DNA of 64,000 bases, taken from positions 104,751 through 168,750 of the forward strand of contig ARQU01000003.1 of NCBI GenBank assembly GCA_000384615.1, read 5' to 3'. The notes under the pieces are model-generated. The model searched no databases, was not told the origin of the DNA, and saw only the letters and a program-made list of their open reading frames with translations. This DNA comes from an alpha proteobacterium SCGC AAA536-G10. Lineage in GTDB: Bacteria; Pseudomonadota; Alphaproteobacteria; Puniceispirillales; Marisalimonadaceae. A program made the position numbers and the translations under genes. Positions 20,670 to 56,470 of this stretch are shown here, piece by piece; the stretch's first letter is position 1, and every line of letters begins with the position of its first letter.

Positions 20670-20681
20670 ATATTAATTTGA

Positions 20682-39535: not shown

Positions 39536-39612
39536 GGCGGAGTAGCTCAGCTGGTTAGAGCACCGGAATCATAATCCGGGTGTCGGGGGTTCAAGTCCCT
39601 CCTCCGCTACCA
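39536..39612 (+). tRNA. tRNA-Met (anticodon CAT; elongator type, Ile2-lysidine type not formally excluded)
   Basis: Hand-folded 77-nt cloverleaf. Acceptor GGCGGAG/CTCCGCT (G1-U72 wobble), D arm GCTC/GAGC, anticodon arm CCGGA-ATCATAA-TCCGG, variable loop GTGTC, T arm GGGGG-TTCAAGT-CCCTC, encoded CCA. It lacks the three consecutive G-C pairs at the base of the anticodon stem that mark initiator tRNAs. Confidence 0.9.
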
Positions 39613-39691
39613 AATAACAATCTGAATAATAAGCCACACCTCACTTGTTATAATTATAGAATCTCAGGATGTTTCATAAAAGTCAAAGCAA

Positions 39692-39707
39692 TTGTGACGG
39701 AGATGTG
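39692..39707 (+). repeat. Left copy of 16-bp direct repeat TTGTGACGGAGATGTG (candidate att core)
   Basis: Exact match to 53363-53378. The word is G+C-balanced in a very AT-rich context, and both copies lie within 80 nt of tRNA-derived repeats. Confidence 0.7.
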
Positions 39708-39790
39708 ACCGGTTTTAATTATTTTTTATCTCTTTTTTAGTAAATTCAAAAACTTAAAAAAAAAAGTTAAATAAATTCTAAATTGGGCCT

Positions 39791-39818
39791 TTTCTGGCGA
39801 TTCATAGCCTGATATAAT
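39791..39818 (+). promoter_or_regulatory. Candidate extended -10 promoter for the alpA-primase operon
   Basis: TGATATAAT (39810-39818) is a TGn-TATAAT extended -10. A weak -35-like TTCTGG lies at 39791-39796 with a 16-nt spacer. Confidence 0.45.
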
Positions 39819-39828
39819 ATAAATGTAA

Positions 39829-39907
39829 GGTGGGGACACCTGGCTGACATACGAGCCCAATCAGTATGGAACAACTTCAATTAACATCGTGGAAGTTGAA
39901 TCCCACC
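39829..39907 (+). ncRNA. Candidate structured RNA / 5' leader upstream of alpA (not a tRNA)
   Basis: Locally G+C-rich ~80-nt segment. The outer pairing is GGTGGG (39829-34) with CCCACC (39902-07). Internal hairpins are GGCT-N8-AGCC and CAACTTC (39872-78) / GAAGTTG (39892-98). It lies directly downstream of the candidate promoter. Confidence 0.3.
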
Positions 39908-39956
39908 CAAAAAAATCGATGCCTAATTTTTAAATTTAATTAAAAAGGAGGGCATT

Positions 39957-40166
39957 ATGGCTCTATTTGAAAATAAAACATACGCAAATGGAAAAGAAAT
40001 TCTTAAATTTTTTGGAGTTACTTCGGAAACAATAAAAGATTGGATGAAGAATAAAGATTTTCCAAAACCTATTACACCAACATCTAAAACAAGATTGTGG
40101 AGATGTTCAGAAATAGAAGATTGGCTTATGGAAATGGAAATAAGACGTGATGATGGAGACCTATAA
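39957..40166 (+). CDS. alpA: AlpA-family helix-turn-helix regulator / excisionase
   Basis: 69 aa with the characteristic ...FPKPI.......W..SEIEDWL... pattern. A strong SD AAGGAGGG precedes it, and its stop overlaps the primase ATG (TAATG). Confidence 0.8.
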   Translation: MALFENKTYANGKEILKFFGVTSETIKDWMKNKDFPKPITPTSKTRLWRCSEIEDWLMEMEIRRDDGDL

Positions 40167-42436
40167 TGCTATCTTTACAGTCTTATGGAAATGCAGCTTT
40201 GAAGTTGTATGAAAATGGTTATATCCCAATTCCAATTAAGCCATTAACAAAAAGACCAATTATTTCTGATTGGCCAAATATTAAGAACGATTATAACCAA
40301 ATTGAAAATCTATCTTCAAAATACCCACATGCAGGTGTGGGTGTTCTATTAAATGATTTAATTGCATTTGATATAGATATTCTAGATGAAACATTATGCC
40401 TCTTGGTAAAAAAAATAATAACTAATGAACTTGGGGATACTATTGAAAGGATTGGCAAATTCCCAAAGAGAGCTCTTTTTTATAGAAGAGTTGGTAAGGA
40501 ATTTAGGAAACAATCCTCTAAGATTTTCAACCTTACAAAGGGTAAAGCTCAATTAGAAATTTTAGCAACTGGCAATCAGTGTATTGCTTTTGGGACACAT
40601 CCAGAAACAAAGCAACCTTATCAATGGATTGAAGACAGTCTCTTAGACATTCACATCCAAGATCTTCCTAGCGTAAATATCAAACAAGTAAAAAATATTA
40701 TTACCCAAACTGAAATACTTTTACGTAATCAGATTGAACCTAAAGAAGAAGTTAGACCAACTATAAAGACAATAATATATGAAACCAAAAAGGAAGAGAG
40801 TTTTAAGGATAAATCCTTAATACGGGGTGCTATAAAACACATAGATCCAGAAGATTATTATACTTGGATAAAGATAGGTTTCGCACTTAAAAAGTATTTT
40901 AAAGATGAAGGCTTTGAAATTTTTGATACTTGGTCAAAATATAAAATAGATGGCTCTCCATGCCCTAATTACTATAATAAAGACTTTAATAGAGAGAAAT
41001 GGAAGTCATTTAATCCAGAAAAAATAGATAAAAGAAACATATTCAAACTTGCAATACAAAATGGCTGGCAAGGAGGTAGTATTTTTGAAATTGAAAGTAA
41101 TACACACACCTCAGTAGCAAAATATCTAAAAAAGCAATTTGAATTAGACGGCCCAATACCAGTCTACGATGAGGGAGAACTTTGGAAATATAATGGTTTG
41201 TGTTGGAAGCTTGTCCCTGATAGTGACTTAAGACAGTTAGTCCATGAACTTGATCAAAAGAAAACCAAATCAGGTAAGTTGATCCATGTAAGCAAACAGT
41301 TTATAGATGGCTGCCTTCATGAATTAATGTCAATGTGTTCGGAGCCAAATTTTTTTGAAGATCAACCAATGGGAGTAAACTGTAAGAACGGTTTTTTGGA
41401 GATATCTTTCGATAAAAAACCACGGTTGTTGGATCACGATCCAAATCATAAGCAAAGATTTATCTTTGATGCCAAATGGGATGATGAAGATTTTATATTT
41501 TCTGGATATTTGAAGAAATTAATAAACGGTTGTTTTTTTGGTTTAGATGAAATTGTCAAAGGTCAATTGATTAGGCTCATTCAACAAATCTTAGGAGTAA
41601 GTATTACTGGAATTGCAACTAAACTTTCTACACCAATGTGTTTTGTCCTATATGGTCCTTCTGCAACTAATGGTAAATCTCAGATCTTAGAATTAGTACG
41701 GTCTCTTTTACCGAAAGATGCTTGTTCATCCATACCTCCTGCTGATTTAGGTAAAGAACAATATTTAATAGAATTAGTTGGTAAAATGGCTAATTTATCT
41801 GATGAGTTATCAGGTGCTAATGCAATACGTTCAGATAAACTTAAAGCAGTTGTAACGGGCGATACTGTAACGGGTAAAAGGGTTTATAAACCAGTATGTT
41901 TATTTAAACCAAATGCTATTCATATATTTGCAACAAATGTTCTTCCTAATTTTAAGGGAGGAGTAGATGAAGGAATTAATAGAAGGGTTAAAGTTATACC
42001 ATTTGATCGATCTATTCCCGTGAATGAGAGAGTACCAAGAATTGCTGAAAAAATTATTTTAAATGAAAAAGATCAATTATTTAAGTTCGCTGTAAAAGGG
42101 GCATTGGATGTTATCGAAAATGATGGCTTTATTATCCCAGATACAGTTGAATTGTCTACAGCTCAATGGTTTGAAGATTCAGACTCAATATTGTATTGGT
42201 TTAAGGAAAATCACCTTCTTGATTTATTGGACAAAAGTAAAAGTAAAAAGGTAGGCATTACAGAGGCATATTCAAAATTTAAAGCACACATGGAGGAAAT
42301 GGGAGAAGGACAATATGTTCCGACTAGAAACAGATTTGCTCAAAGAATTAGGCAATTGGTCAGAGATGATGTTGATCTTGAAATGGGTAGGGACAAATAT
42401 TCTAACTACATAAGATATAAGCAATTGGTGTATTAG
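40166..42436 (+). CDS. Bifunctional primase-polymerase / P4-D5-type SF3 helicase (phage/plasmid primase, P4 family)
   Basis: N-terminal Prim-Pol (YENGYIPIPIKPLTKRPI..W, IAFDIDI acidic motif, HPETKQPYQW) and a PriCT-2-like region (YYTWIKIGFALKKYF...FDTWS). The C-terminal P4-family helicase has Walker A GPSATNGKS, Walker B NLSDE and the INRRVKVIPF tail. Confidence 0.9.
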   Translation: MLSLQSYGNAALKLYENGYIPIPIKPLTKRPIISDWPNIKNDYNQIENLSSKYPHAGVGVLLNDLIAFDIDILDETLCLLVKKIITNELGDTIERIGKFPKRALFYRRVGKEFRKQSSKIFNLTKGKAQLEILATGNQCIAFGTHPETKQPYQWIEDSLLDIHIQDLPSVNIKQVKNIITQTEILLRNQIEPKEEVRPTIKTIIYETKKEESFKDKSLIRGAIKHIDPEDYYTWIKIGFALKKYFKDEGFEIFDTWSKYKIDGSPCPNYYNKDFNREKWKSFNPEKIDKRNIFKLAIQNGWQGGSIFEIESNTHTSVAKYLKKQFELDGPIPVYDEGELWKYNGLCWKLVPDSDLRQLVHELDQKKTKSGKLIHVSKQFIDGCLHELMSMCSEPNFFEDQPMGVNCKNGFLEISFDKKPRLLDHDPNHKQRFIFDAKWDDEDFIFSGYLKKLINGCFFGLDEIVKGQLIRLIQQILGVSITGIATKLSTPMCFVLYGPSATNGKSQILELVRSLLPKDACSSIPPADLGKEQYLIELVGKMANLSDELSGANAIRSDKLKAVVTGDTVTGKRVYKPVCLFKPNAIHIFATNVLPNFKGGVDEGINRRVKVIPFDRSIPVNERVPRIAEKIILNEKDQLFKFAVKGALDVIENDGFIIPDTVELSTAQWFEDSDSILYWFKENHLLDLLDKSKSKKVGITEAYSKFKAHMEEMGEGQYVPTRNRFAQRIRQLVRDDVDLEMGRDKYSNYIRYKQLVY

Positions 42437-42526
42437 TGTATATATTTATCTGATAATTTTTTAATAAGAATAAAACTTGAAAAACTTTTGAGAAAATAAC
42501 CTACACTCCTACACCTGTGTTGCAAT

Positions 42527-42904
42527 TTATTTAATCCAATCTTTACGCCAATTCTTTTCTAAATGACCATGGTCCACGAACCAAGCTTCTAGCTCTTTTA
42601 ATTCACGTCGAATTATTCGTCCTTGCTCTGCTCTGGCTTTAGCTTTTGCTCGTTCTAATTTTGTAAATCTACCATGTTTAGTTTTTGAATCTGCTAATCT
42701 TTTCAAACCTTCCTTGGTCCTTGGGCCTGTGCTCGCACCTCCATGAAGTCTGCAACGACCGACAGGCAGTTTAGCTGGACGTTGACATGGTGTACCTTTT
42801 CGAGTTTTTGCTTCACATCTTTTGCCTTGCCAATTAGGCCCAAAACGCCAAGGTATACCTTTTAAAAGGTTTCTTTTTGTTATCTTGTCAATACCACCAA
42901 TCAT
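42527..42904 (-). CDS. HGGxSTG-domain protein (mobile-element associated, function unknown)
   Basis: 125 aa with CEAKTRKGTPCQRPA...GRCRLHGGASTGPRTKEG, the HGGxSTG signature, followed by a basic helical tail. Confidence 0.75.
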   Translation of the reverse strand: MIGGIDKITKRNLLKGIPWRFGPNWQGKRCEAKTRKGTPCQRPAKLPVGRCRLHGGASTGPRTKEGLKRLADSKTKHGRFTKLERAKAKARAEQGRIIRRELKELEAWFVDHGHLEKNWRKDWIK

Positions 42905-43142
42905 AGGGTTTTATTATACCACAAATTAATATGCTTATCAGCCGGGTGTTTACTTGAAACTAATGCTCATGGTCGGTGAATAATGATCAATCTCATATAA
43001 TTAGACATCAATACAACAAAAATTTTCTTTGGAGGATATGTCAGATAGTTATACATAGAAAAAATACTACTATTAACCCATCCTTACCTTAAAAGATTTA
43101 ATTGTATTTTAAGTAATTAAGTTTTTAATAATTTTTTAAATC

Positions 43143-44063
43143 TCAGGTGCCAACAGCTACCAGACCCAGAACCAACCGCTTCTTTCTAATCCTGTTCTCA
43201 CGCTTAACCGGAGAGTATAAAAACGATCTCATTGAATTTTTATTCACTTTAGTGGATTCAAGTTCTGGCTGCTTATTAAAGGGAAATGAGTATGTAAGAA
43301 TACCCTTGGTGACACTGCTTGTTCTATTTGAATCGTCAGTCGCAACGTTTAAAGTAAGCCTTTCGCTCAAAGTTAGATTAACTCCTGCCTCTGTACCTCT
43401 CTCTTTAAAACCTGCGCCATCAGACCAATTATACCCCCTGGCATATATTTCTGGGTTATAAGCAAAATCAGACTTAAAACTAATGGTATAGTCAAATCCA
43501 TCTAGAGCTGTCTCAGAAATACCTTCGTAAATACGAGTGTCAGTTAGAGCCCTGTAATAGTTAGCTCTTAAACCCACACCGTTACTTAGGGTCTCCGCGC
43601 CAAGCCCCCAACGCTTATGTCCTGAGCTGAACTCATTATCTAAAAATAAATTTGCGCCATAAAGCCAAGTCTCATTATCAGACAAAGTCCTGTAGCCAAG
43701 ACCGATATTCGCAGTGTTCCTTCCATCAACCCTTGATATACTTATTTGGTTAAAAACGGCATCGCTTTCCCCTTCATTAAGCTTGATAACAGCAGTAGCC
43801 TCGCCGCCTGTTTTGTTATCATTATTAAAAACAGAAACGGAAATGTGTTTAAGATTTTCTCCTGTAGCTTTTTCACTCATAGCTGTAGCTAAAGCGTTCA
43901 ATTTTGACACAGCAGCATCAACCAAGGACCCTTTAAGCTTTTTAGTATTAGACGACTGAGCATTTAGAGCATTAATTGGCAAAGTTACGGTAAAAACAAA
44001 CGTCAATAAAACGATGACTTTGTGTATAAAAACAGATTGGCTTTTTCCCATTTTATTCTCCAT
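43143..44063 (-). CDS. Inverse-autotransporter (intimin/invasin-type) beta-barrel domain protein without a passenger
   Basis: Signal peptide (…LPINALNA-QSS). The block VDGRNTANIGLGYR...LYGANLFLDNEFSSGHKRWGLGAE...LRANYY...ALDGFDY...YNPEIYARGY...VNLTLSERLTLNV...LTYSFPF...RSFLYSPVKRENRI aligns by eye with the intimin barrel (ANLGAGQRF..LGYNVFIDQDFSGNNTRLGIGGEY..INGYFR..PANGFDI..YPALGAKLMY..VNYTPIPLVT..RYDLVQRNNNI). The protein ends about 12 aa after the pore-linker motif. Confidence 0.75.
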   Translation of the reverse strand: MENKMGKSQSVFIHKVIVLLTFVFTVTLPINALNAQSSNTKKLKGSLVDAAVSKLNALATAMSEKATGENLKHISVSVFNNDNKTGGEATAVIKLNEGESDAVFNQISISRVDGRNTANIGLGYRTLSDNETWLYGANLFLDNEFSSGHKRWGLGAETLSNGVGLRANYYRALTDTRIYEGISETALDGFDYTISFKSDFAYNPEIYARGYNWSDGAGFKERGTEAGVNLTLSERLTLNVATDDSNRTSSVTKGILTYSFPFNKQPELESTKVNKNSMRSFLYSPVKRENRIRKKRLVLGLVAVGT

Positions 44064-44941
44064 TATTCCGCCTCCACCAAAAACTCAAATCCTCGCTGCA
44101 TAATCCCTGTGACACATCTATCACCGCCACCAACACCACAAGATGCGTGACCATTACTTTTCTGTCGAATTTTACCATTACCTGTTAGAGCAAAACTCAT
44201 TTTGATACGAGAGGTTGTATTGCTTATTATAGGTTGGTAACCAGTCTTAAAAGCCGAGATTCCAAGGAGATAGCGGGTGTCGTTATCTGAAGTTGATTGC
44301 GTGGTTTCCGCACTCAGCGCATATGAGTTATTTACTGCAAAAGTTTTATCATCTGCAGCACGCTCATAATTTGTTGCTCCAGCGTTTGAGGTCCATCTAT
44401 CCTTATCAGAAACCATATAACCAGGATTTGCATTGGCTGCTAAACCACAATCTATTGGTAAATTGGCAAACCCGTTTGCTTCATCAAAACTCTCACCTTC
44501 GAGCGTCCAACAAGTTGTCCCAGCTGTGTCAGATTTGCCACGCCTGTTTGTACTAAATGTGATTACGCCCTTTGAGTATAGTTTGTTTTCAACAAGAAGC
44601 ACGGAGTGCGTATATGTCCCTAACGGTAAAGAAAGATCAACGTTTGGGGCAACTGCGGCTTCACCGCCAAGTTCTACGCGCACTTGACTAGCGACGGCAG
44701 AATAAAACAACTGTTCACACACGGTTTGGTAGTTACTAACTGTTGGTGTTTGCTGGCATAGCCAGACACCGTGTAGGTTTAGGCCCATTGCCTGAGCATC
44801 GTTTTCACACTGGTTACTTGTATCCGTAACCACTCCCGAGCTCACAGTACAGTCAGCAGATTTAGCGGAGCCAACTAACCAAGATTGAGACATAAATAAA
44901 AAAAAGGTCACTATAAACAAATACTTCATATTATACCTCAT
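44063..44941 (-). CDS. Secreted Cys-rich protein of unknown function, translationally coupled to the barrel gene
   Basis: 292 aa with an N-terminal signal peptide (alternative start MKYLF at 44929), 8 Cys, and a Thr/Ser/Asn/Gly-rich beta-type composition. Its stop TAA overlaps the barrel ATG (TAATG at 44061-44065). G+C is high relative to the host (28/60 at 44101-44160). Confidence 0.7.
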   Translation of the reverse strand: MRYNMKYLFIVTFFLFMSQSWLVGSAKSADCTVSSGVVTDTSNQCENDAQAMGLNLHGVWLCQQTPTVSNYQTVCEQLFYSAVASQVRVELGGEAAVAPNVDLSLPLGTYTHSVLLVENKLYSKGVITFSTNRRGKSDTAGTTCWTLEGESFDEANGFANLPIDCGLAANANPGYMVSDKDRWTSNAGATNYERAADDKTFAVNNSYALSAETTQSTSDNDTRYLLGISAFKTGYQPIISNTTSRIKMSFALTGNGKIRQKSNGHASCGVGGGDRCVTGIMQRGFEFLVEAE

Positions 44942-45069
44942 AATTTATACTTAACCTGTTAACGGTATCAATTTAATACACATTTAATTTAAGGCAAGAG
45001 AAATAATCGTAATTTATAAAAAAATTAGTTTTATTAATTTTGATCTAATTTAATTAAAATTATTTTGTA

Positions 45070-46449
45070 TTAATTTATACATTTTGGTTCAAATCCAAAA
45101 TTTCTATCTACAAAATAAGCTGATTTTTTTGATTTCCACATTCCATCATTTGCAACTATGATATGATCTTTGTTTGTGTAGTTCTCAATTAACCAGTCTA
45201 ATGATATAGCCATTTGGTGAGTGTGATATGCGGCATGAGCTTTATCTTTTGTATGATTCCTCATTCCTGATGGATCTTTACGTTTTCTGTATGTTTTAAC
45301 GTCTGTAAGACCTAAGTTAAGTATATCCACAGTTTTATCAATTCTTTGCTTCAATTCTTTTGGAAACTGCTTATAACCCCATAGTTCAGCTATAGCATAT
45401 AGTCCTAGCAAATTGTTTACACCTTGTGAGTGATACCATACATCTCTAACACCTCTGAAACTATTGTTATGAATATATCCGTCCCTGTAAACAACCTTAT
45501 CAGCTTTAGCAATTCCTTTTTGAATCCATCTTGCTACTTGCTCTGGTTTGTTTTTCCAAGCTAAATATGATAAAATACCAATAGTTCCGTCAGCCAATTG
45601 AATAAAACCTCTGGTATGCTTATCTAGCTTCATAGCCTTAATAGCTAACGGTTTGACATATTTTCTGTATAAAGTATCAATATACTCGTCAACAATTTTA
45701 AATTGTTCTTTGGTAAATTGATCTTTCATCAAATATGCTTGTTGCATATAAGTGGCTCCGTATATTTGAGCTTCATGTGGTCTATGCGAGATGCAAGGTT
45801 TAGTACCGTCACCTGTACCATTTCCGTAACATAGTCTATCAACTTTGCCTTGATCTTTTAATTTGCTAATTTCTTTAGAAGTTAATGTATTTAACATGAC
45901 ACTTGCTTCTGCCCAGGCTACCATAACTTCAGCAATAAGTGGACCATGCTCGTCCATTTTGTTATTCACTATTGAATAAACAATAGTTCCATGCAGTAAT
46001 GCTAGTCTATTAGAATGTTTTTCGTGATTAACATATATACTATTTGATCTTAGTTCATGATCCTTGTTCCAATCATACTCAGTAAGTTGCATTAGGTGAT
46101 CATAGTTATTTCCTTGAAGGTCAGGATTTTTTGACTTGCTCACGTGTGTTATAGCAAGATCCATCTCCCAATATGCTTTACCCCAACTTCCATGACCATG
46201 CACACCTTCTAGTGAGCAAGTTTTTTTTGTAAGTTTGTTTGCGAAGAAATATTTTGGAATAACAATATCATTCTTTGGCATTGACGAGATTACTTTTACC
46301 GTTGTTTGGCAACCTATCAATTTTAGTATAATCAGTATAAAAAGAATACCTTTGAAAAAAGATAACCAATATATACCGTAATGAGACATATGCACTTTTT
46401 TCCTAAAAGCTTCACAATAAGACATATGCCATTTGATAATCTGATCCAT
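45070..46449 (-). CDS. Predicted lipoprotein, unknown function; weak resemblance to alginate-lyase/heparinase-type polysaccharide lyases
   Basis: A lipobox-like LKLIGC follows a hydrophobic segment (probable start MSHYG at 46389). The helix-rich body has an FRGVRDVWYHSQGV segment reminiscent of the R...YH catalytic segment of PL5-type lyases. The functional call is speculative. Confidence 0.55.
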   Translation of the reverse strand: MDQIIKWHMSYCEAFRKKVHMSHYGIYWLSFFKGILFILIILKLIGCQTTVKVISSMPKNDIVIPKYFFANKLTKKTCSLEGVHGHGSWGKAYWEMDLAITHVSKSKNPDLQGNNYDHLMQLTEYDWNKDHELRSNSIYVNHEKHSNRLALLHGTIVYSIVNNKMDEHGPLIAEVMVAWAEASVMLNTLTSKEISKLKDQGKVDRLCYGNGTGDGTKPCISHRPHEAQIYGATYMQQAYLMKDQFTKEQFKIVDEYIDTLYRKYVKPLAIKAMKLDKHTRGFIQLADGTIGILSYLAWKNKPEQVARWIQKGIAKADKVVYRDGYIHNNSFRGVRDVWYHSQGVNNLLGLYAIAELWGYKQFPKELKQRIDKTVDILNLGLTDVKTYRKRKDPSGMRNHTKDKAHAAYHTHQMAISLDWLIENYTNKDHIIVANDGMWKSKKSAYFVDRNFGFEPKCIN

Positions 46450-46574
46450 AATATTTTTCTATTTATCATAACAATTTAACTAAATTATCTTTAATTTCAA
46501 ACAAATTTACCTAACAGTAATCTTACCAACGTAACTACCAACTCCAATCCATGCTCTATCGACTACGGTCAATG

Positions 46575-46667
46575 GGCAGACCACCCCTTGACCATTGTCA
46601 TAAGTTGATTAGGAATAGGGTGCAGTAACCCTTCGTTTAATATATTCCTAGCTCGTCAGGCTCATAA
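46575..46667 (+). repeat. Copy 1 of a ~95-nt imperfect direct repeat (integrase-arm-like blocks + tRNA-fMet-like core)
   Basis: Conserved blocks GGCAGACCACCC (46575-86), TTGATTAGG (46605-13), GGTGCA and TAGCTCGTCAGGCTCATAA (46649-67) recur in the same order and spacing at 52308-52398. Confidence 0.7.
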
Positions 46668-46711
46668 CCTTAAGGTCGTAGGTTCAAATCCTACCCCCCC
46701 CCCCGCAACCA
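46649..46711 (+). pseudogene. 3' two-thirds of an initiator-type tRNA-fMet gene (fragment, with expanded C tract)
   Basis: TAGCTCGTCAGGCTCATAACCTTAAGGTCGTAGGTTCAAATCCTAC-C(11)-GCAACCA matches the D-stem 3' strand, anticodon arm (CAT), T arm and acceptor 3' strand of bacterial initiator tRNA. No 5' acceptor or D-arm precedes it. The acceptor C run is 11 nt (46694-46704) instead of about 5. Confidence 0.75.
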
Positions 46712-46851
46712 ACTTATTTTATAAAATCAATAAGTTATACGCACATCAAGAACTTCGGTTTTTGGGGTTTTTTTGCGTTTTAAGCCTGATAAGGGTTTCA
46801 CCATGCCAACCATCGTGCCAACCAGTCGTCAGGTTTATTCCATTTTAATGA

Positions 46852-47133
46852 TCATAATTCATATTGTTTATACTTCTTAGCATGCTTAATAAGTTCTGCC
46901 TTATATTCTTCAGCAGAATTACAAACTTGTTCAAATTCTAAAAAATATAATTTTTGATTTGATAAAGCAAAGTATCCTTTAACTTGTAACTTCTCCATTT
47001 TTGCATTTTTGTCTTCAATGCCATGTTGAGCATTTAATGTTGATACAATTGAATTAGAATGGTCATCATTCATGTGTTCAATTATTCTATTAGATGCATT
47101 TATAAGCCAATTAGGTACTTTGCTATCATTCAT
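46852..47133 (-). CDS. DUF2470-family protein (HugZ C-terminal-like small domain)
   Basis: 93 aa with IIEHMNDDHSNSIVSTL, which matches the HMN.DH signature of DUF2470. Confidence 0.6.
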   Translation of the reverse strand: MNDSKVPNWLINASNRIIEHMNDDHSNSIVSTLNAQHGIEDKNAKMEKLQVKGYFALSNQKLYFLEFEQVCNSAEEYKAELIKHAKKYKQYEL

Positions 47134-47205
47134 TTAAATATCTCTAATTAATTATTACTTATCTATCATATCACGTATTTAAATAAATTCATTACGATAT
47201 AGCGA

Positions 47206-47598
47206 TCAAATTTTAAACAGAATATCCCAACCAGTAACAAGCACCATTAAGTTTAAAAATGCTATTATAGCAGGGGCGACGTACCCTTCAGCAGATGTCT
47301 TTACGCCATCAACAGAACCCCAATAACTATGGATAGTTTGAAAGCAAACAACAGCGCCAATACATGCTTGCACAAAACCATAGACAAATAGTAGCCAAGC
47401 ACCTTCGATAGAAGTGAATAAAGCAATAGCTAGTGTTACTGAAAAGCCGGCAGCAAAAGTACCAACAAGTCTTGTCATAATTGCACTACCTTCACCGAAG
47501 CCATATTTCTCAATGTACTTGCGTGTTTGGAAAATACATTGATAAGCATAAACCAAATTTCCAAATATTATAATTAGTATGAGTGAAAAAATTAGCAT
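47206..47598 (-). CDS. Integral membrane protein (4 predicted TM helices), unknown function
   Basis: 130 aa, almost entirely hydrophobic helices. No recognisable family. Confidence 0.5.
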   Translation of the reverse strand: MLIFSLILIIIFGNLVYAYQCIFQTRKYIEKYGFGEGSAIMTRLVGTFAAGFSVTLAIALFTSIEGAWLLFVYGFVQACIGAVVCFQTIHSYWGSVDGVKTSAEGYVAPAIIAFLNLMVLVTGWDILFKI

Positions 47599-47874
47599 GT
47601 TAGTTTAGATCTCCAACCCTTTCAATTAGGGGACAGATTTTCCATAAAATTAACACCCATCTAAAGCATAATCACAAAAGAATAACAAAAACTTGGCTGG
47701 GTAAATACTTAATATTAATATAGGCTTATTTAATTATTTGTAAATAAGTTGGTTTCAGTTGTTAAATTGGTTTAAAAGATACATTATATGTGTGAATAAT
47801 GATGGCTAAGGAAAATATCGAACATAAAACAGTAAGTTATTTTTTGATTGAAGTTTACTAAAATACATATTGTT

Positions 47875-49041
47875 CTAAAAAAATATATTTAACGTTAAAG
47901 TGATTGCATCATCATCCGATAGCTGCCCAAATGTAGACGTGGTTGTGCGTGCATTATAAAACTGGCTGGTCAATTTGACACTGGTGACATCATTGATCCG
48001 TCGCGACGCTTCCAAAGAGGCAAAGGACTGATCCGTTTTACGATCCAACGATGCCAAAAATAAAAAATTACTGTCTGCAATGTCATTAAATACAAGCCTT
48101 ACACCCGCAACACCAAATTGATTAGCTGCGGCCTGTGGACGGTCGTCATGTTGAATTTCACCAATCAAGCCAATATCCCATATTGTTTCAAATGCTCCGT
48201 AATAAGTATATTCAATCCCCGCAACAGCCGCCGCAAAATCATGAGCGCCAATTAAGCTGCTTTGGGTGCCATGAAGGCTTTCCCATTTGAGCAATGTAAC
48301 ATCGCCAGTATATTGAGCTTCAAATCCTATTGATTTTTGTAAAGCGTAATGTGGGTTTAATGCGCTTCCATTACTGTTGACAGACAAAATGGGATCACGA
48401 GCGGTACCGTAAAAAACACTTCCTGCTAGATCCCAATCTCCAGCAAAGCTAGACAAGCGTGCCGCAAAGTCATCTGCATCCTTGCCATTCTTACGCGCAT
48501 ATTGTGCAGAACTGACTGGAACTCCACTACTTGGATGCGCGTCACTATCATTAAATGTTTTTTCTCGAAAACGAGAAATATACCAAAGCTGCAGGTTACC
48601 AACATCTAGATAGCGTTCAGCAGATATAGATGGTGCCCCAAGTTTACCTGATTTACCATCATTTGCTGCAGCATCGGACTGATTAATAACATCAACAACA
48701 TTTTTACTTTCTGCCTTACCCCAAAATTCCTGACGATTTCCAACAAAAAAATCAAATCCGGCAAAGGGACTGCGAAAATAAGCCTGTCGAGCTTCAGTGA
48801 TCCGGCGACCACTATCTTTTTTATCCCCACGGAAAATGAATTCACCCACAATTCGACTTTTGTCAAAATCATGAAAGGCATCAATCTTTACTTCCACCGA
48901 GCGTCCTTCTGACGCCGTACCATCAGCATGATCAGGATAAAAATCTAGCCGTGATGAAAGCGTGCCATTAACTTTACCAGCAAAAGCCGGTTGTGTTAAC
49001 AAAAGGACAATAGCAAAGCAACGAGCATAATACGTAATCAT
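47875..49041 (-). CDS. Outer-membrane beta-barrel protein (third gene of the RND/LolA-like operon)
   Basis: Signal peptide (…TQPAFA-GK), alternating beta-strand pattern, C-terminal LTLNIFF with terminal Phe (OMP signature). A 4-nt overlap with the upstream LolA-like gene indicates an operon. Confidence 0.7.
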   Translation of the reverse strand: MITYYARCFAIVLLLTQPAFAGKVNGTLSSRLDFYPDHADGTASEGRSVEVKIDAFHDFDKSRIVGEFIFRGDKKDSGRRITEARQAYFRSPFAGFDFFVGNRQEFWGKAESKNVVDVINQSDAAANDGKSGKLGAPSISAERYLDVGNLQLWYISRFREKTFNDSDAHPSSGVPVSSAQYARKNGKDADDFAARLSSFAGDWDLAGSVFYGTARDPILSVNSNGSALNPHYALQKSIGFEAQYTGDVTLLKWESLHGTQSSLIGAHDFAAAVAGIEYTYYGAFETIWDIGLIGEIQHDDRPQAAANQFGVAGVRLVFNDIADSNFLFLASLDRKTDQSFASLEASRRINDVTSVKLTSQFYNARTTTSTFGQLSDDDAITLTLNIFF

Positions 49042-49823
49042 CGTGTCCGTTTCAATGTGGATTTTTCAAAATCACGTTCGGTCATACCGGTCTGAAACTT
49101 CCAATCGGCAAACACGAGTTCCGTTTTCTTGCCTGTCTGGTGATTAATCATAACCAAACGATTAGACCGCCAGAATTTATCTAGATATTGATTATAATCT
49201 TCATAGGTCAAGGTTTTCAAAAGTGCGTCTTTGCGGTCATAGAAATCAATTTTGTGAACGCGGTACTCAGCTTTATCCATCCAAACAATCTGGCGCTTAT
49301 AGCCACTTTTGCGATCAACCGGATCATATTCAACAACAAAACACTCAAGACCATTCAACTCTTCATCACGCAGATAATTATAGGTGTATTTTTCAACTTC
49401 CTGACTAGCGATATCTTCATACGAAAATTCACTACCCATAAAAGGACCTGCCTTATTTGACGATGCGATACGCTTAACGCGTTTCAGAGCTGGCAAATAT
49501 AGCCATTGGTCATCCGAATCAGCCTTTTTTGTGTGCGAAAGGAAAGCTGTGCCGCGCACATCACCCGGACTATCAAATATTACAAGAGACTTATCACCTT
49601 CATTATAACCCTCAAACGTTCTATTACGGATTGTACGTTCAGTTGATTGCCCATATTTGTCCATTAGGATCATTGTTATCTGTGCGGTTGAATCACCAAA
49701 CCCCTTGTCGCGGCTATCGGCTTCAATCGCAATCTCTAGTCCTTTTTTAGGCGAGGCAAATGCCGCTGTTATCATAACGGCAGTGGTAATAGCGACAAAC
49801 ATGGTTACAGTACCGAGTTTCAT
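49038..49823 (-). CDS. LolA-like outer-membrane lipoprotein-sorting family protein
   Basis: Track ORF extends to 49880, but the probable start is MKLGTVTMFVAI (49823), which gives a signal peptide. The conserved block DKSLVIFDSPGDVRGTAFL...DDQWLYLPALKRVKRIASSNKAGPFMGSEFSYEDI is typical of the LolA_like family. Confidence 0.8.
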   Translation of the reverse strand: MKLGTVTMFVAITTAVMITAAFASPKKGLEIAIEADSRDKGFGDSTAQITMILMDKYGQSTERTIRNRTFEGYNEGDKSLVIFDSPGDVRGTAFLSHTKKADSDDQWLYLPALKRVKRIASSNKAGPFMGSEFSYEDIASQEVEKYTYNYLRDEELNGLECFVVEYDPVDRKSGYKRQIVWMDKAEYRVHKIDFYDRKDALLKTLTYEDYNQYLDKFWRSNRLVMINHQTGKKTELVFADWKFQTGMTERDFEKSTLKRTR

Positions 49824-49851
49824 TTTAGTCTCCTTAGACAACATCATGAGC

Positions 49852-52182
49852 TTAAGCATTTTGTGGTGCTTCTTTAACACCTATTATTGGTGTGGTTTCT
49901 TTTTTATCCTTATCAAGGGCAATCAGCAAAGCAGGGAGCAAAGTCATATCGGCAATTAAAGCTATAACAAGGGCTATGCCTGTTAACATTGCCATATTGC
50001 TGTTCACGCCAAAGGTTGATTGAGCCAGAATAGCAAAACCAGCTGTTAGTATCAGAGTTGTAACAACGAGTGCCGTTCCAACACCTTTGAAAGCCGAAAT
50101 GACAGCATCATGCGCAGACAGTTTTAATTCGCGTCGAGCAATCTGATATTTGCTGAGAAAATGAACACTATCGTCAACCACAACGCCAAGCGCCATACCC
50201 GCAACAACAGCGACAGCCATATTGACCTGCCCCACAAGCAAACCCCAAAGGCCAAAGGCGAGTGCCGCAGGCAGCAAATTAGGTATCAAGCTGATGATTC
50301 CAAGCCGGACATCACGTAAGGCAATTAGAATAACACCACTAATCAGAAAAACAGCAATAAGGGTTCCTAGCAACATACTTTGAATATTACGTTCGGAAAT
50401 ATAGGCAAACATCACAGTAGGTCCGACAGCTGTCAGGTTAAAATCAAGCTCATCCGCAAGGTAGCTTTCAGCCCGAGCAATCCAGGCACGAAGTTCATTC
50501 GTGGTCATATCGTCTATTGTAACAATGACCTGTGTTGATGATTTGCTTATATCAAGTTGATTGTTCAAATCCAAACCGAATGGCAACGATAGCTCATATA
50601 AAAGTAGATATTGGGCGGCAAGTTCGCGCGTATCAGGCACCTGGTAAAAAGCTGGGTCACCAGCGTTCAGATCACGATTAAGACGCTTGAAGGTGTCCGA
50701 AATAGATTGTACATGTGTTACCACAGGCTCATTATTCGCCCAGGCGGTAAAATTAGATACTTTTTCAATAAAGACCGGATCGCTAATACCATTGGATTCG
50801 CCAGTAGGCAAACTAAATTGCACCTGATTGACACCAGTTAGATTGCGACTGATCCAGTCGGTATCTTGACGATACTGGACTGACTCGTCAAAATATTTAA
50901 CAAAGTCATCATTGATTTCATTGAGTGGAATAAGTGACAGAATACTAACTGAGATAATAACACTGGCAGTTAGAACCGACTTATAACGCGAAGCGACGTA
51001 GACACCAAGCTTTCCCATTTTATCATCAAGCCTTGCCAAGGTGGCTTTTGATTTCAGCGGAACGAAGCTAATGAGAATAGGTAATAGAACGATTGAAAAT
51101 ATCCAGGCAGCCATAACACCTATGGCTGTTATATTACCCAGGTCGTGAAACGGTGGGGAATCTGAAAAATTCATCGACAGAAAACCCAGAGCCGTTGTCA
51201 GACTAGTTAGAAAAATAGGTTTACCATTAACTCGTATACTGTAAAGCAAGCTGTCGCGTTGACTATGCCCTGCCCGCATCCGGTTGAACATACTTACCAA
51301 TAAATGGATTGCGTCGGCGACCGCAAGGGTGGTGATAATGGTTGGTGCACTGGCAGATGGAGGCGTTAGGCCAATGCCCATCCACCCACCAGCGCCCATA
51401 GCTACAATGATACTTGGCACAACAACAAACAGCACCAAAAATGTTGCCATTATCGATCTAAGCAATAAATAAGCGACAATTAAAATAACCAAGTACATCG
51501 CCGGCACCAATGTTGCCATGTCTAGCATTGATGATTCCAGAAACGCGTTATTCAGAAATATAACACCTCCCAAGCGAATTTTGACATTATGTTTAGCTTC
51601 GATCTCGGCAGCCATTTCGCGTGCAGCGGCTGCCACAATGGCAACCTCGTCAGCGCTTTTACCTGGCATCTGAATGGTTGCATTTACGGATGTGGCCCGA
51701 TGTTGCTTATCATGAATTTTTCCTTCCAGAGCCGGCTCAGTCGTACTCACACGATCAACCAAAGCTTGTTCATTAGCGTTCATTGACATTGCATCAGTAT
51801 ATAAATCTCGCACAATCAGATCATCACCTTCAACCTCGGTATGCTGATGATTTGACAGGCTATCAACTCGGATGGAAAAAGGAAGTTGCCATGCAATGTC
51901 AGTCAACTCCTCAACAGCGGCCAGCACCTCAGGCGCATTAGCTTTGCCTGAAATTGGATCAACAGCAAAGTTAACGTTATCTATCTTGGTATAGGTCTGC
52001 TGGATTTTTTCAAATGCTTTAAGTTGAGGATTTTCTTTTCCAAAAAACACTCTGTAATCATTGTCAAAATAAAGAAATTGGGTTCCTACGGCAGCAAGCA
52101 AGGATACAGCTGTAATAAGACCTAAAACTAGAAATCTATATTTAAGTATCCACTCGCCGTAAGAGCCATTTTGCTGTGACAT
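49852..52182 (-). CDS. RND-superfamily exporter (MMPL / HpnN-like, COG1033-type)
   Basis: 776 aa. Two 6-TM bundles are each preceded by a large periplasmic loop. The SSD-like TM region is LTSLTTALGFLSM and the second half contains GVVVDDSVHFL. G+C is high (32/60 at 50161-50220). Confidence 0.85.
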   Translation of the reverse strand: MSQQNGSYGEWILKYRFLVLGLITAVSLLAAVGTQFLYFDNDYRVFFGKENPQLKAFEKIQQTYTKIDNVNFAVDPISGKANAPEVLAAVEELTDIAWQLPFSIRVDSLSNHQHTEVEGDDLIVRDLYTDAMSMNANEQALVDRVSTTEPALEGKIHDKQHRATSVNATIQMPGKSADEVAIVAAAAREMAAEIEAKHNVKIRLGGVIFLNNAFLESSMLDMATLVPAMYLVILIVAYLLLRSIMATFLVLFVVVPSIIVAMGAGGWMGIGLTPPSASAPTIITTLAVADAIHLLVSMFNRMRAGHSQRDSLLYSIRVNGKPIFLTSLTTALGFLSMNFSDSPPFHDLGNITAIGVMAAWIFSIVLLPILISFVPLKSKATLARLDDKMGKLGVYVASRYKSVLTASVIISVSILSLIPLNEINDDFVKYFDESVQYRQDTDWISRNLTGVNQVQFSLPTGESNGISDPVFIEKVSNFTAWANNEPVVTHVQSISDTFKRLNRDLNAGDPAFYQVPDTRELAAQYLLLYELSLPFGLDLNNQLDISKSSTQVIVTIDDMTTNELRAWIARAESYLADELDFNLTAVGPTVMFAYISERNIQSMLLGTLIAVFLISGVILIALRDVRLGIISLIPNLLPAALAFGLWGLLVGQVNMAVAVVAGMALGVVVDDSVHFLSKYQIARRELKLSAHDAVISAFKGVGTALVVTTLILTAGFAILAQSTFGVNSNMAMLTGIALVIALIADMTLLPALLIALDKDKKETTPIIGVKEAPQNA

Positions 52183-52307
52183 TAAAGCACCTTTTAAAAT
52201 TACAAACTAAGTTGAAAGTATCGTTGATAAACAATATTCAAGAAATAAATACTTCAACACAAAAAAATACAAAAATAGCTTAATAAGTTAGATTTGCCAA
52301 ATAAATT

Positions 52308-52398
52308 GGCAGACCACCCTTTAACTAAATTTCAATCTTGATTAGGTAATTGGTGCATTTACAAATAAGAATGATTGATTAGCTCGTTAGGCTCATAA
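52308..52398 (+). repeat. Copy 2 of the imperfect direct repeat; tRNA-fMet-like core overlaps the integrase stop codon
   Basis: GGCAGACCACCC (52308-19), TTGATTAGG (52338-46), GGTGCA and TAGCTCGTTAGGCTCATAA (52380-98). The integrase TGA (52393-95, minus strand) lies inside the CTCATAA anticodon-loop equivalent. Confidence 0.7.
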
Positions 52399-53349
52399 TT
52401 TAGCATTAACTTGAACATATCTAAACAACTGACTAGCCGTCTTATGACCACTAATTGATGCAACTTCTGGTACGTTTAATCCTTTTTCAAACATCCTTGA
52501 TATAGCTTCATGCCTTAAATCATGAAAAGTAAAGTCAATTAAGTTTGCTCTATTACGAAGCCTTTCCCAAGATTGTCTTAAAGCTACATCAGTAATAGGG
52601 AACACATGGTCAGTGGTCCGTGGAACTTGGCTCAATATATCTATAGCTTTTTTAGTAAGAGGCACCCATCTTGAACTACCATTCTTTGTTAATGGTAATA
52701 AGACTCTTTGATTATCAATGCCAATATGTTCCCACTTCATGCCTAAAATCTCACTCCGTCTCATTCCTGTTTCAATAGCAAAATCGATAATGAGCCATAG
52801 ATACCAAACCTTTGTTTCAGAGGATGCTCTCTTTAATCTTTCATATTCACCAGGTTTTAATCTTCTTTCTCTTGGAGGATTATTTTTAGGCAGTCTTATT
52901 TTTTCAACTGGATTATCACCTAAGCTCCAACCCCATTCTATACATGCAATGTTCCATGCATGTCTGATCAAAACTAGATCATACTGACAAGCTCGAACTC
53001 CATCCTTAAGTCTTCTGTCCCTAAAAGCAGCCAGAATATGGGGGTGGAGTCTTTCTAAGGGTAAGTTCATAAGATCTTTTTCTTTAAGTAACCTTCTTAA
53101 CCTTTGATCCTCTGAAATGAACCCTCTTTTCTTTGGTGTAATTTCATATTTATATTTTGTGATAAGAGAATGAAGAGTGAATGAATGCTCTTTGATCCTT
53201 GACCATTGACCTGATTGCATTAAGACTTCTTGTTTTTTTGCCCATTTCTGAGCATCTAATTTACTATGAAATGATTTTGATATAGACCCTATGTGTTTGC
53301 TTCTTACTTGTGCTTGCCATAAGTTATTTCTTTTACGAAAACTAGCCAC
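52393..53349 (-). CDS. int: Tyrosine site-specific integrase (intact)
   Basis: 318 aa, GTG start after GGAGGG. N-terminal arm-binding-like MASFRKRNNLWQAQVR. Catalytic residues are in ETGMRRSE (Arg), HDLRHE (His-x-x-Arg), GHKT (His) and LFRYV (Tyr). Confidence 0.9.
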   Translation of the reverse strand: MASFRKRNNLWQAQVRSKHIGSISKSFHSKLDAQKWAKKQEVLMQSGQWSRIKEHSFTLHSLITKYKYEITPKKRGFISEDQRLRRLLKEKDLMNLPLERLHPHILAAFRDRRLKDGVRACQYDLVLIRHAWNIACIEWGWSLGDNPVEKIRLPKNNPPRERRLKPGEYERLKRASSETKVWYLWLIIDFAIETGMRRSEILGMKWEHIGIDNQRVLLPLTKNGSSRWVPLTKKAIDILSQVPRTTDHVFPITDVALRQSWERLRNRANLIDFTFHDLRHEAISRMFEKGLNVPEVASISGHKTASQLFRYVQVNAKL

Positions 53350-53362
53350 TTTTTTCCCTCCG

Positions 53363-53378
53363 TTGTGACGGAGATGTG
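53363..53378 (+). repeat. Right copy of 16-bp direct repeat TTGTGACGGAGATGTG (candidate att core)
   Basis: Exact match to 39692-39707. It overlaps the hairpin CTCCGT-TGTG-ACGGAG (53358-53373) located just upstream of the integrase SD and GTG start. Confidence 0.7.
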
Positions 53379-53430
53379 GCAGCTAATTTACATTAGTAAA
53401 AATATTGTTATTAAACAGAGAGTTATAAGT

Positions 53431-53488
53431 TTAGAGCACCGGAATCATAATCCGGGTGTCGGGGGTTCAAGTCCCTCCTCCGCTACCA
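53431..53488 (+). repeat. Direct repeat 2: exact copy of tRNA-Met positions 39555-39612 (att remnant)
   Basis: 58/58 identity, checked by hand, from the D-loop/D-stem 3' side through CCA. Confidence 0.95.
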
Positions 53489-53538
53489 AAAAATCAGTAA
53501 AATCAATAGTTTATAAAATCATTGCTCAGTGGTCTTGA

Positions 53539-53557
53539 GTTATACACAGTTATACAC
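53539..53557 (+). repeat. Tandem GTTATACAC motifs (candidate integrase arm-type sites)
   Basis: GTTATACAC at 53539-47 and 53549-57 (10-nt phasing), 50 nt after repeat 2. The same doublet follows repeat 3 (56533-41, 56543-51) and precedes it (56344-52, 56357-65). Confidence 0.5.
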
Positions 53558-53570
53558 TAAAATTAGGAAT

Positions 53571-53809
53571 ATGAATAAGAACCTTACAATACAAAGAATT
53601 AATGTATCAAAAGGTCTTTCTTTATATAAAACTTGGCGAAGTCCTTATTATTTTGCTCGAATTTGGGATCCTATTGAAAAAAAATATCGTTAGTAGGGGG
53701 AAGTTTAAGAGATATTCAGATGATGGTTGGTCATAGTTCTCTTCAAACTACTCAGAGATATATTGAAGCAGATAGTCAATCACAAAGGAAAGTAATTGAT
53801 TTGATATGA
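53571..53809 (+). pseudogene. Integrase remnant (N-terminal ~40 codons joined to C-terminal ~35 codons; internal deletion)
   Basis: MNKNLTIQRINVSKGLSLYKTWRSPYYFARIWDPIEKKYR-stop (53571-53693), then ...SLRDIQMMVGHSSLQTTQRYIEADSQSQRKVIDLI-stop (to 53809). The latter is the canonical tyrosine-recombinase C-terminus containing the catalytic RY. Confidence 0.75.
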
Positions 53810-53863
53810 CATAGTGAAAGGAGTAATTATGAGTTCTGTGCTCTTTTCATTACCAGTAAACTT

Positions 53864-54193
53864 TTAACTTAGAATGGTGTCTTCAAGAACTATCCCTCTA
53901 TTACTAAAAGTCTTAATAATCATATCTTCACTCTCCTTAGCATCAATTTCTTTCCAAATAGGAAGGCATGCTTTAAATGCTTTTTCATCTTTATATTCAA
54001 AAACAAAACCTAATCTTGATATATTCTCTTTGTTCCAAATTCTTAAACTTACAAAACGTAATAATCCTAATTTTTTTAATCTTTTGTAGTAAGAATCCTT
54101 TACTTGATCCCACCTTAAACTTGCAAGTTCTAACTCTTTTTCTGACATAAAATCTTGTGTGGTAAAATTAATTAACTTTGGATTAGTTCCCAT
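53864..54193 (-). CDS. Hypothetical protein
   Basis: 109-aa ORF with host-like AT-rich composition. No family recognised. Confidence 0.45.
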   Translation of the reverse strand: MGTNPKLINFTTQDFMSEKELELASLRWDQVKDSYYKRLKKLGLLRFVSLRIWNKENISRLGFVFEYKDEKAFKACLPIWKEIDAKESEDMIIKTFSNRGIVLEDTILS

Positions 54194-54554
54194 AAATTCC
54201 TCTTTTTCGACATTATCTAATTTATTAATGAAAAAATATAATATTAAGAGTTATTTTAATAGTATAATGTTTTCGGACTTACTTTATCTGTATAGTCATT
54301 GGATTTAAATATGATACTAACATTTTTCTTTGTTAATAATTGTTTGATTTAAATTAGAAATCTGGTCTGATAATTCTTTAATATCTAATTCTAATTTATT
54401 AAGTTTATCCTTAAACTCTTTTTCATAATACCTTTCACCATTACTTATTTTTAAATAATTTAATAAAATTACTATCTTTATTATTGAAAAATTATTATGA
54501 ATGCTAAATACATTTTATTTTTTTTTCATATTTTTTATCTTTAATTTAGAGTGG

Positions 54555-56422: not shown

Positions 56423-56470
56423 GGAATCATAATCCGGGTGTCGGGGGTTCAAGTCCCTCCTCCGCTACCA
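56423..56470 (+). repeat. Direct repeat 3: exact copy of tRNA-Met positions 39565-39612 (att remnant)
   Basis: 48/48 identity, checked by hand, from the anticodon stem through CCA. Confidence 0.95.

Follow-up and report, generated by a model that had tools for sequence, protein, structure and literature searches.

A probable site-specific integrative element, apparently intact, in the 3′ end of tRNA-Met(CAT) of a SAR116-type alphaproteobacterium

Which of two nested direct repeats forms the ends of an integrative element, and to what kind of mobile DNA does this element belong? The question is raised by a 64-kb stretch of DNA (64,000 nucleotides, contig ARQU01000003.1, positions 104,751 to 168,750; called the window in the following) from the alpha proteobacterium SCGC AAA536-G10, whose closest relatives are SAR116 single-cell genomes, in line with the AT-rich marine alphaproteobacterial host proposed in a first-pass annotation. 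A SAR11 host was considered and set aside, as SAR116 genomes proved to be the nearest. The window contains genes for a tyrosine integrase (Int), an AlpA-type regulator and a primase-helicase, which the first-pass annotation had described as a P4-like element bracketed by an exact 16-bp direct repeat. We assign a probability of roughly 0.8 to the reading that the feature is a site-specific integrative element in the tRNA-Met(CAT) 3′ end of a SAR116-type alphaproteobacterium; the element apparently is intact. Judged from sequence comparison, its true junctions are 60-bp repeats of the tRNA-Met 3′ part, and the 16-mers lie inside the element ends. The closest described kind is the cargo-carrying tycheposon by layout, tRNA target and cargo. 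All positions are coordinates of the whole 64-kb window, and L001-L034 are labels of related loci. The attachment (att) region is made up of the following features:

39536-39612, + strand: tRNA-Met(CAT) gene (ARAGORN; Rfam tRNA, 67 bits), whose 3′ 58 nt form the left att core
39555-39614: attL core, left copy of a 60-bp exact direct repeat
53431-53490: attR core, right copy of the 60-bp repeat, a tRNA-Met 3′ fragment
53491 onward: DNA directly right of attR, beginning with AAAATCAGTAAAATCAATAG...

The 60-bp repeat consists of the last 58 nt of tRNA-Met and two further bases, and attL and attR are identical at 60/60 positions. The element defined in this way is 13,876 bp long, with element-specific DNA at 39615-53430. 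The repeat was taken as the junction because three lines of comparison agree. The integrase relatives in L001 (99.7% identity), L003 (86%), L004 (85%) and L015 (62%) all show the int start, followed by the TGTGAC motif of the 16-mer, about 52 nt of element DNA and a tRNA-Met 3′ fragment, past which the sequences diverge from one another. Among the primase relatives, the DNA between the tRNA end and the 16-mer is kept together with the element wherever the left end was captured. The host genes on the left have diverged far more, as in L026, with 58% (mnmA) and 36% (glyoxalase) identity to the window's compared with 93% (alpA) and 83% (primase). Finally, an empty site was found in L033 (GCA_028137025.1), which carries mnmA, a glyoxalase gene (82% identical to the window's), tRNA-Met, about 150 nt, DUF723 and HI0933. 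It holds one tRNA core only and lacks both an integrase and the TGTGAC motif.

The 16-mer TTGTGACGGAGATGTG was indeed found as an exact 16-nt direct repeat at 39692-39707 and 53363-53378, and only there in the window. However, it brackets the genes only, as the 60-bp tRNA repeats enclose both copies. The empty site that had been predicted, AAAGCAA-16mer-GCAGCTAA, does not agree with L033, in which a plain tRNA-Met without any 16-mer is present; the prediction is wrong because the DNA flanking both 16-mers is element DNA. The same tRNA-Met is occupied by a 1.7-kb insert in L034 and by an intact island of another integrase family in L032. Together with the empty L033, this makes the locus a presence/absence hotspot in SAR116 relatives. 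The tRNA-Met gene, its two further copies and an internal tRNA(CAT) fragment had been overlooked before.

If the 16-mers are not the junctions, what are they? The left copy lies 80 nt to the right of tRNA-Met and the right copy 52 nt to the left of the attR core. In the following, the P arm denotes the int side and the P′ arm the alpA side of the att core. Each 16-mer is part of a pair of half-sites:

39693-39709, + strand: P′-arm pair TGTGAC-GGAGA-TGTGAC, holding the left 16-mer; proposed arm-type Int site
53364-53380, + strand: P-arm pair TGTGAC-GGAGA-TGTGGC, holding the right 16-mer; proposed arm-type Int site
39633-39638: GCCACA, a P′-arm variant half-site in inverted orientation (TGTGGC on the opposite strand), from sequence comparison
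39657-39666: TAGAATCTCA, a P′-arm block kept in Met- and Phe-type elements; candidate accessory-protein site

In each pair the half-sites are in direct orientation and 11 bp apart. A chance origin was ruled out: shuffled sequence gives an expectation of 0.02 for the 16-mer, which has no further copy even with 2 mismatches, and the pattern TGTGAC-N5-TGTGRC has 2 matches in the window, only at these two places, against 0.01 expected. The looser pattern TGTGAC-N5-NGTGNC occurs once per arm, in the homologous place, in every related locus covering an arm; L004 matches only this looser pattern, its second half-site being AGTGAC. In 8/8 loci with both captured, the distance from the P-arm pair to the core is 52-53 nt. 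The DNA between them is unrelated between elements in tRNA-Met and in tRNA-Phe (Met and Phe types), and the spacing is nevertheless fixed. The two copies in the tRNA-Phe elements have different spacers and only the TGTGAC half-sites in common. For this reason, the half-sites are regarded as the conserved unit and the 16-nt identity in the window as a special case. A block (G/T)CACACC in the P′ arm is likewise kept in the Met- and Phe-type elements by sequence comparison.

The integrase encoded next to the P arm has the following features:

52393-53349, - strand: tyrosine integrase of 318 aa, inward-facing (PF00589, E 1e-26)
53356-53375, - strand: hairpin CUCCGU-CACA-ACGGAG in the int 5′ region, pairing the int Shine-Dalgarno sequence

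The GTG start codon lies 13 nt from the right 16-mer, the distance that had been given before, and 81 nt from the attR core. The catalytic residues R197, K222, H276, R279, H302 and Y311 are intact and invariant in a 40-sequence alignment. Among solved structures the best sequence match is full-length lambda Int, to which Int is about 20% identical. The AlphaFold model (predicted local distance difference test score, pLDDT, 84.7) has the full-length lambda Int structures 1z1g and 1z1b as top Foldseek matches (E 2e-11). Its N-terminus shows strands at residues 2-7, 10-17 and 21-27 and a helix at 30-46, with block pLDDT values of 80-87 over residues 1-50. In the model, the N-terminal domain is a lambda-like arm-binding fold. 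Like lambda Int (PDB 1z1g, 1z1b, 5j0n), the protein has three domains in the model, the R-K-H-R-H-Y set and repeats on both attP arms; unlike for lambda Int, and at an identity of about 20%, we infer the arm binding. The annotated attP of P4 is laid out in the same way, with tandem 12-bp arm repeats on both sides of the core, one of them over the int start. Since the pair occurs at the same places in the relatives and Int has a lambda-like N-terminal fold, the 16-mers are probably arm-type Int sites of attP. In L015, alpA is down to 34% identity, yet the N-terminal 40 residues of Int and the motif are both kept.

The int hairpin has a predicted free energy of -20.7 kcal/mol (z -4.3), and its inner stem is kept in 8/8 related loci. 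On the mRNA strand it consists of the int-side TGTGAC copy and the sequence just before it. By pairing the Shine-Dalgarno sequence with an anti-Shine-Dalgarno stem at 53358-53363, it would limit the synthesis of Int. The constraint imposed by the hairpin explains why the int-side spacer always is GGAG(A/G). In several relatives the outer stem also pairs the start codon.

The other end of the element carries a replication module, in which alpA and the primase gene form an operon:

39810-39818, + strand: TGATATAAT, extended -10 promoter-like element of the alpA-primase operon
39825-39956, + strand: alpA leader with 92% mean column identity (12 loci) and a predicted multi-stem fold
39957-40166, + strand: alpA, AlpA/Xis-type winged-helix regulator, probable excision factor (PF05930, E 1.2e-5; phrog_66 excisionase/regulator)
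40166-42436, + strand: primase-helicase with Prim-Pol, PriCT_2, D5_N and DUF5906 domains (Pfam; PHROG DNA primase families)
42527-42904, - strand: HGGxSTG-domain protein, third conserved gene of the module (NF041373)

The gene content proposed in the first-pass annotation, i.e., AlpA, a Prim-Pol/P4-D5 helicase, an HGGxSTG protein, about 9 kb of envelope cargo and the 318-aa integrase, is borne out by family matches. The AlpA match to PF05930 has 25.5 bits (cutoff 21). The one-base overlap of the alpA stop and the primase start (TAATG) was seen at 40166, and the extended -10 element is present as described and kept in 15 loci. No -35-type promoter was found by consensus scan. In the predicted fold of the alpA leader, one stem pairs GCCU with the alpA Shine-Dalgarno sequence. 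The leader matches no Rfam family and has just 3 covarying pairs, the variation being too low to judge the structure. The C-terminal part of the primase scores 124.9 bits with the P4-family domain TIGR01613 (cutoff 108.7). All three mobility genes, int, alpA and the primase gene, are full length with full domain coverage. The HGGxSTG protein is 82-92% identical in the close relatives carrying the gene and 66% identical in L015, a different element, and is absent from L024. It has 551 homologues, with no informative name among the 120 listed. Its structure model is poor (pLDDT 70, predicted template modelling score 0.33) and gave no Foldseek match in BFVD at E <=0.001, no PDB profile match was obtained, and a full-text literature search on ‘HGGxSTG’ returned no paper.

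Taken together, the following mechanism is proposed. Int, with AlpA as directionality factor or activator, would recombine attL with attR. In the excised circle, attP would consist of the 60-bp tRNA core with TGTGAC-N5-TGTGRC pairs at distances of 52 nt (int side) and 80 nt (alpA side), so that the predicted attP junction reads 53363-53430, 60-bp core, 39615-39709. The N-terminal domain of Int would bind the TGTGAC pairs, i.e., the 16-mers, as arm-type sites. As the int-side pair overlaps the hairpin over the int ribosome-binding site, the synthesis of Int would be kept low and possibly be autoregulated. The primase-helicase would replicate the circle, for which phage capsids, vesicles or another route are candidate ways between cells. 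Of the attP layout suggested earlier, the divergent arrangement of int and alpA across the attachment region of the circle stands, but the 16-mer is not the att site.

Several observations weigh against this reading. The TGTGAC motif could be a site for AlpA or a host protein instead, and part of the 16-nt identity may be unrelated to protein binding because the hairpin constrains the spacer of the int-side copy. A search for the circular junction (P motif, core, P′ motif) gave 0 matches in the IMG/VR and JGI metagenome contigs, a weak negative, since the pattern demands exact half-sites and spacers and assemblies rarely retain minority circular forms. The primase and the HGGxSTG protein are without a close relative in IMG/VR. 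Relatives of the integrase were found there by a profile search, at <=41% identity and many on 30-95 kb contigs. Against cultured phage genomes the primase gave distant matches only (<=27% identity), to the helicase part. The exact primase sequence of the window has no entry in the contig index.

Two other explanations of the repeats have to be considered. That the 16-mer itself is the attachment site, and the element thus the 13.7-kb segment 39692-53378, would account for an exact 16-bp direct repeat that is unique in the window. This reading has next to nothing left in its favour, as the 16-mer is enclosed by the 60-bp tRNA-derived repeat, the stretch from it to the tRNA core accompanies the element in other genomes, and the copies in the tRNA-Phe relatives differ in their spacer and share the TGTGAC half-sites alone; the L033 empty site, which has no 16-mer, and the comparative data refute it. 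The other explanation, which we consider unlikely, takes the TGTGAC pairs as operators or sites for AlpA, acting as excisionase or activator, or for a host factor that would co-regulate int and the alpA operon. The overlap of the int-side copy with the int 5′ region would fit this, as would the position of the other copy about 100 nt upstream of the alpA promoter-like element, and AlpA-family proteins do control the excision of PICMIs (phage-inducible chromosomal minimalist islands; PMC10803314). However, in L015, where the identity of alpA has dropped to 34%, motif and Int N-terminal domain are both retained, the spacing to the core stays at 52-53 nt, and a lambda-like N-terminal Int fold needs arm sites. 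The reading of the pairs as arm-type Int sites is therefore preferred.

How far the element is spread was seen from relatives of the primase, which were found in eight SAR116 single-cell genomes and sixteen metagenome contigs, mostly at 82-98% identity. The module of alpA, primase and HGGxSTG genes adjoins tRNA-Met in L008-L010, L012, L022 and L026, and tRNA-Phe(GAA) in L005, L006, L011, L020 and L021. A further locus at tRNA-Phe, L018, has a divergent alpA and no HGGxSTG match. L021 is a complete tRNA-Phe element of 12,272 bp with its own 60-bp exact repeat, which begins at the same tRNA position as that of the window (AGAGCA, 3′ side of the D stem). Its arms carry TGTGAC-AGAGG-TGTGAC about 95 nt past the tRNA and TGTGAC-GGAGG-TGTGAC adjoining the int start. 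Between Met-type and Phe-type integrases (window, L013, L021, L024) the identity is 81-86%. The positions that separate the two types cluster in residues 9-19 and 48-95, nearly all of them in the N-terminal and core-binding parts, with one elsewhere, and the catalytic domain is almost identical. The tRNA-Met and tRNA-Phe cores agree at about 40/56 positions.

A different element was observed at tRNA-Met in L015 (9862-19075), with a 62%-identical integrase and another gene order. Besides a divergent alpA and an HGGxSTG gene (66%), it carries genes for two DNA methylases with a BpuJI-like nuclease and for a RepB_primase/DUF5906 primase.

Between the replication module and int lies the cargo, which together with the fragment between its two blocks comprises three parts:

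43143-46449, - strand: cargo block A, encoding an inverse-autotransporter beta-domain protein, a 292-aa protein and a 459-aa protein
46649-46710, + strand: internal tRNA(CAT)-like 3′ fragment with ATAAAATCAATAAGTTATAC after it (24.6 bits with the Rfam tRNA model, short of the gathering score)
46852-52182, - strand: cargo block B, encoding a DUF2470 protein, a 130-aa protein, a 388-aa protein, a LolA-like protein and an MMPL/HAE3-type transporter of the resistance-nodulation-division (RND) superfamily

The envelope-type cargo amounts to about 9 kb (43143-52182). Its guanine-cytosine (GC) content is 0.39, and that of the MMPL/LolA-like block (47875-52182) 0.43; the element as a whole has 0.37, the remainder of the window 0.30. 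No family match was obtained for the 130-aa protein of block B, and PADLOC found no defence system in the cargo. Block A is 99.7-100% identical in L029 (1302-4605), whose primase is just 85% identical, and recurs at tRNA-Phe in L013 (11286-14590) with 92-95% identity. In L001 (1445-6772), int and the MMPL block B are about 99.5% identical, followed by different genes. Since the recurring cargo blocks are 92-100% identical at the protein level, compared with 84-92% for the adjoining backbone genes, the sequences point to a recent exchange of cargo modules between elements. Across the relatives, the cargo differs almost everywhere beyond the HGGxSTG gene; it ranges from one gene between primase and int in L024 to a sulfolactate/TctA/glucuronate set (ComA, TctA, UxaC) in L021.

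The internal tRNA fragment sits exactly at the mosaic breakpoint of the cargo. L001 and L012 have this fragment together with its right flank, while the left flank is a different one in all three loci, and ATAAAATCAATAAGTTATAC resembles the arm of the other integrase family, that of the L032 island. The fragment may resemble the E. coli initiator tRNA. It looks like a captured piece of another tRNA island, which fits the accretion model of tycheposons.

Beyond attR, further remnants follow:

53491-56471, + strand: decayed second island with integrase pseudogene pieces (53529-53808), AGTTATACAC repeats and DUF6974, GFA and DsrE genes
56472-56860, + strand: third island remnant with AGTTATACAC repeats and an integrase N-terminal pseudogene (56575-56795), followed by a DUF723 gene tail

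A third tRNA-Met copy of 49 bp, at 56423-56471, closes the second island. Both downstream tRNA fragments are followed by tandem AGTTATACAC repeats and integrase pieces broken by stops. Those at 53571-53687 and 56575-56795 are matched by the N-terminal end of the intact 392-aa integrase that adjoins the same tRNA-Met in L032. The chromosome resumes with the DUF723 gene tail and an HI0933-like gene (56970-58187). From the third tRNA fragment and the two decayed integrases of another family after attR it follows that the locus is a tandem array, consisting of tRNA-Met, the intact element, a fragment, a decayed second element, a fragment and a decayed third element. In L013, a 378-aa DUF6538-type integrase was observed in the equivalent position, which has no tblastn match to the window.

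The element was compared with several described kinds of mobile DNA. With tycheposons (bioRxiv 10.1101/2020.12.28.424599) it shares the integration in the 3′ part of a tRNA gene, partial copies of which mark the ends, a tyrosine recombinase that faces inward from one end and a small module of excisionase-type regulator and primase/helicase at the other, up to about 10 kb of niche-related cargo without capsid or conjugation genes, and tandem arrays that are split by partial tRNAs and have decayed integrases behind. One tRNA-Met(CAT) gene is also a target in Prochlorococcus, and the cargo likewise seems to serve local adaptation (envelope and transport functions here, metabolic ones in L021). 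All parts of the tycheposon definition that were compared agree with the island. Unlike the tycheposons of Prochlorococcus, the island has a SAR116 host, and its replication module holds a conserved HGGxSTG gene. Related elements have been reported in Alpha-, Gamma- and Deltaproteobacteria (bioRxiv 10.1101/2020.12.28.424599).

The designation as P4-like did not hold. By the definition of SatelliteFinder, P4-like satellites have seven components (PMC10085698), of which the integrase and AlpA are clearly present in the island, the primase arguably, and four are missing, so that a P4-like satellite was ruled out. The two elements are alike in int, an AlpA-type regulator, a primase-helicase with a TIGR01613 C-terminal part and the attP layout. 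However, no protein of the element matches P4 by tblastn (best E 0.055), Psu, Delta, Sid and Ash/epsilon are lacking (tblastn, Pfam, NCBIfam, PHROG), the N-terminus of the island primase is a Prim-Pol domain, the cargo is large and metabolic or envelope-related, and the host is not an enterobacterium. Packaging and capsid genes of phage-inducible chromosomal islands (PICIs) and capsid-forming PICIs (cfPICIs), i.e., terS, capsid morphogenesis and head-tail adaptor genes, were not found in Pfam and NCBIfam searches. The sole matches to the PHROG category ‘head and packaging’ are weak terS-family matches of AlpA itself (E 0.004-0.009). That int, alpA and the primase gene form an intact-looking element without phage structural genes, as had been described, is thus confirmed by Pfam, NCBIfam and PHROGs. 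A conjugative or mobilisable element was ruled out as well, since no relaxase, origin of transfer (oriT) or type IV secretion system match was found in any open reading frame of the element (Pfam, NCBIfam).

PICMIs come closer in gene content, as int, alpA and a DUF5906 primase are enough for such a satellite, which is packaged as concatemers (PMC10803314). The PICMI gene set was found co-located in the island: int, alpA (PF05930/PF12728) and a primase (DUF5906/DUF3987). As in PICMIs and VEIMEs (integrative mobile elements encapsidated in virions), int, alpA and a DUF5906-type primase are the sole recognisable mobility genes, capsid-remodelling genes are lacking and the hosts are marine. Moreover, the minimal relative L024 is of PICMI-like size. 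However, PICMIs sit beside fis in Vibrionaceae and have a length of about 6 kb, whereas the island is in tRNA-Met, 13.9 kb long and has SAR116 relatives. PICMIs and VEIMEs were shown in virions, whereas the island family was not found in IMG/VR and no helper phage is known for it.

This bears on how the element moves, if it moves at all. As a phage satellite, it would be excised, replicated and packaged upon induction by a helper, probably as concatemers in unmodified helper capsids, similar to PICMIs and VEIMEs. We regard this as possible but doubtful. Its int, alpA (PF05930) and DUF5906 primase are the three mandatory genes of the PICMI model, and in PICMI115 these three suffice for excision and replication (PMC10803314); VEIMEs without capsid genes are nevertheless found in virions, some of them mapping to alphaproteobacterial genomes (PMC9618062), and L024 is reduced to one gene between primase and int. 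Yet searches with Pfam, NCBIfam, PHROGs and PADLOC revealed no terS or capsid gene, no Sid/Psu/Delta or Ppi/Cpm and nothing else for packaging or interference, no close relative was found among 2.9 million IMG/VR contigs, no helper phage is known, and the cargo, like that of cargo-carrying tycheposons, has metabolic or envelope functions and is not directed at phages. It is, in turn, quite unlikely that the island is a fixed remnant that is no longer mobile, its mobility genes being intact only through recent insertion or co-option. The lack of an attP junction in assemblies and the decay of the neighbouring elements of the same array would agree with such a state, but none of the three mobility genes is truncated, their domains are covered in full and the catalytic residues are conserved, and attL and attR are 60/60 identical here, compared with substitutions in the attR fragments of L001 and L003. 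Furthermore, the site is polymorphic for presence and absence, and the modules are found again at a second tRNA and in diverged hosts. An integrative element with intact mobility genes remains the preferred reading.

The element kind is already described in ocean bacteria and is not the rarity that had been supposed for streamlined marine lineages, as tycheposons, VEIMEs and PICMIs have been reported before (bioRxiv 10.1101/2020.12.28.424599; PMC9618062; PMC10803314). Its value rests mainly on the corrected att architecture, the tRNA fragment at the cargo breakpoint and the Met/Phe specificity switch. It offers a clean, fully delimited example of the acquisition of flexible genes by streamlined marine heterotrophs outside the cyanobacteria. 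Cargo exchanged between backbones at nearly 100% identity accords with the way islands grow in the tycheposon model, which is thereby extended to SAR116. Two integrases that are about 85% identical but target different tRNAs provide a compact natural experiment on the site specificity of integrases, and the corrected junction sequences permit direct tests of excision in reads or by polymerase chain reaction.

A more far-reaching, tentative reading would join these points into an undescribed SAR116 lineage of replicative elements, with a recent retargeting between tRNA-Met and tRNA-Phe, cargo from a third tRNA and a new core function of HGGxSTG; as a whole, we consider it conceivable rather than likely. 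In this case, about twenty substitutions in Int residues 9-19 and 48-95 would retarget the integrase, with arm sites and catalytic domain unchanged. An island at another tRNA would have contributed cargo too, as suggested by the embedded initiator-like tRNA(CAT) fragment. The HGGxSTG protein would have a role, e.g., in replication control or in hijacking helper phages or vesicles for transfer.

Finally, a search of the whole island against Rfam yielded tRNA-related matches only, and a tandem-repeat search for iterons or an origin gave nothing convincing. Elsewhere in the window, a very low GC content (0.21-0.26, at a window average of 0.315) was observed at 20001-25000 and 30001-33000, and these may be other flexible regions.

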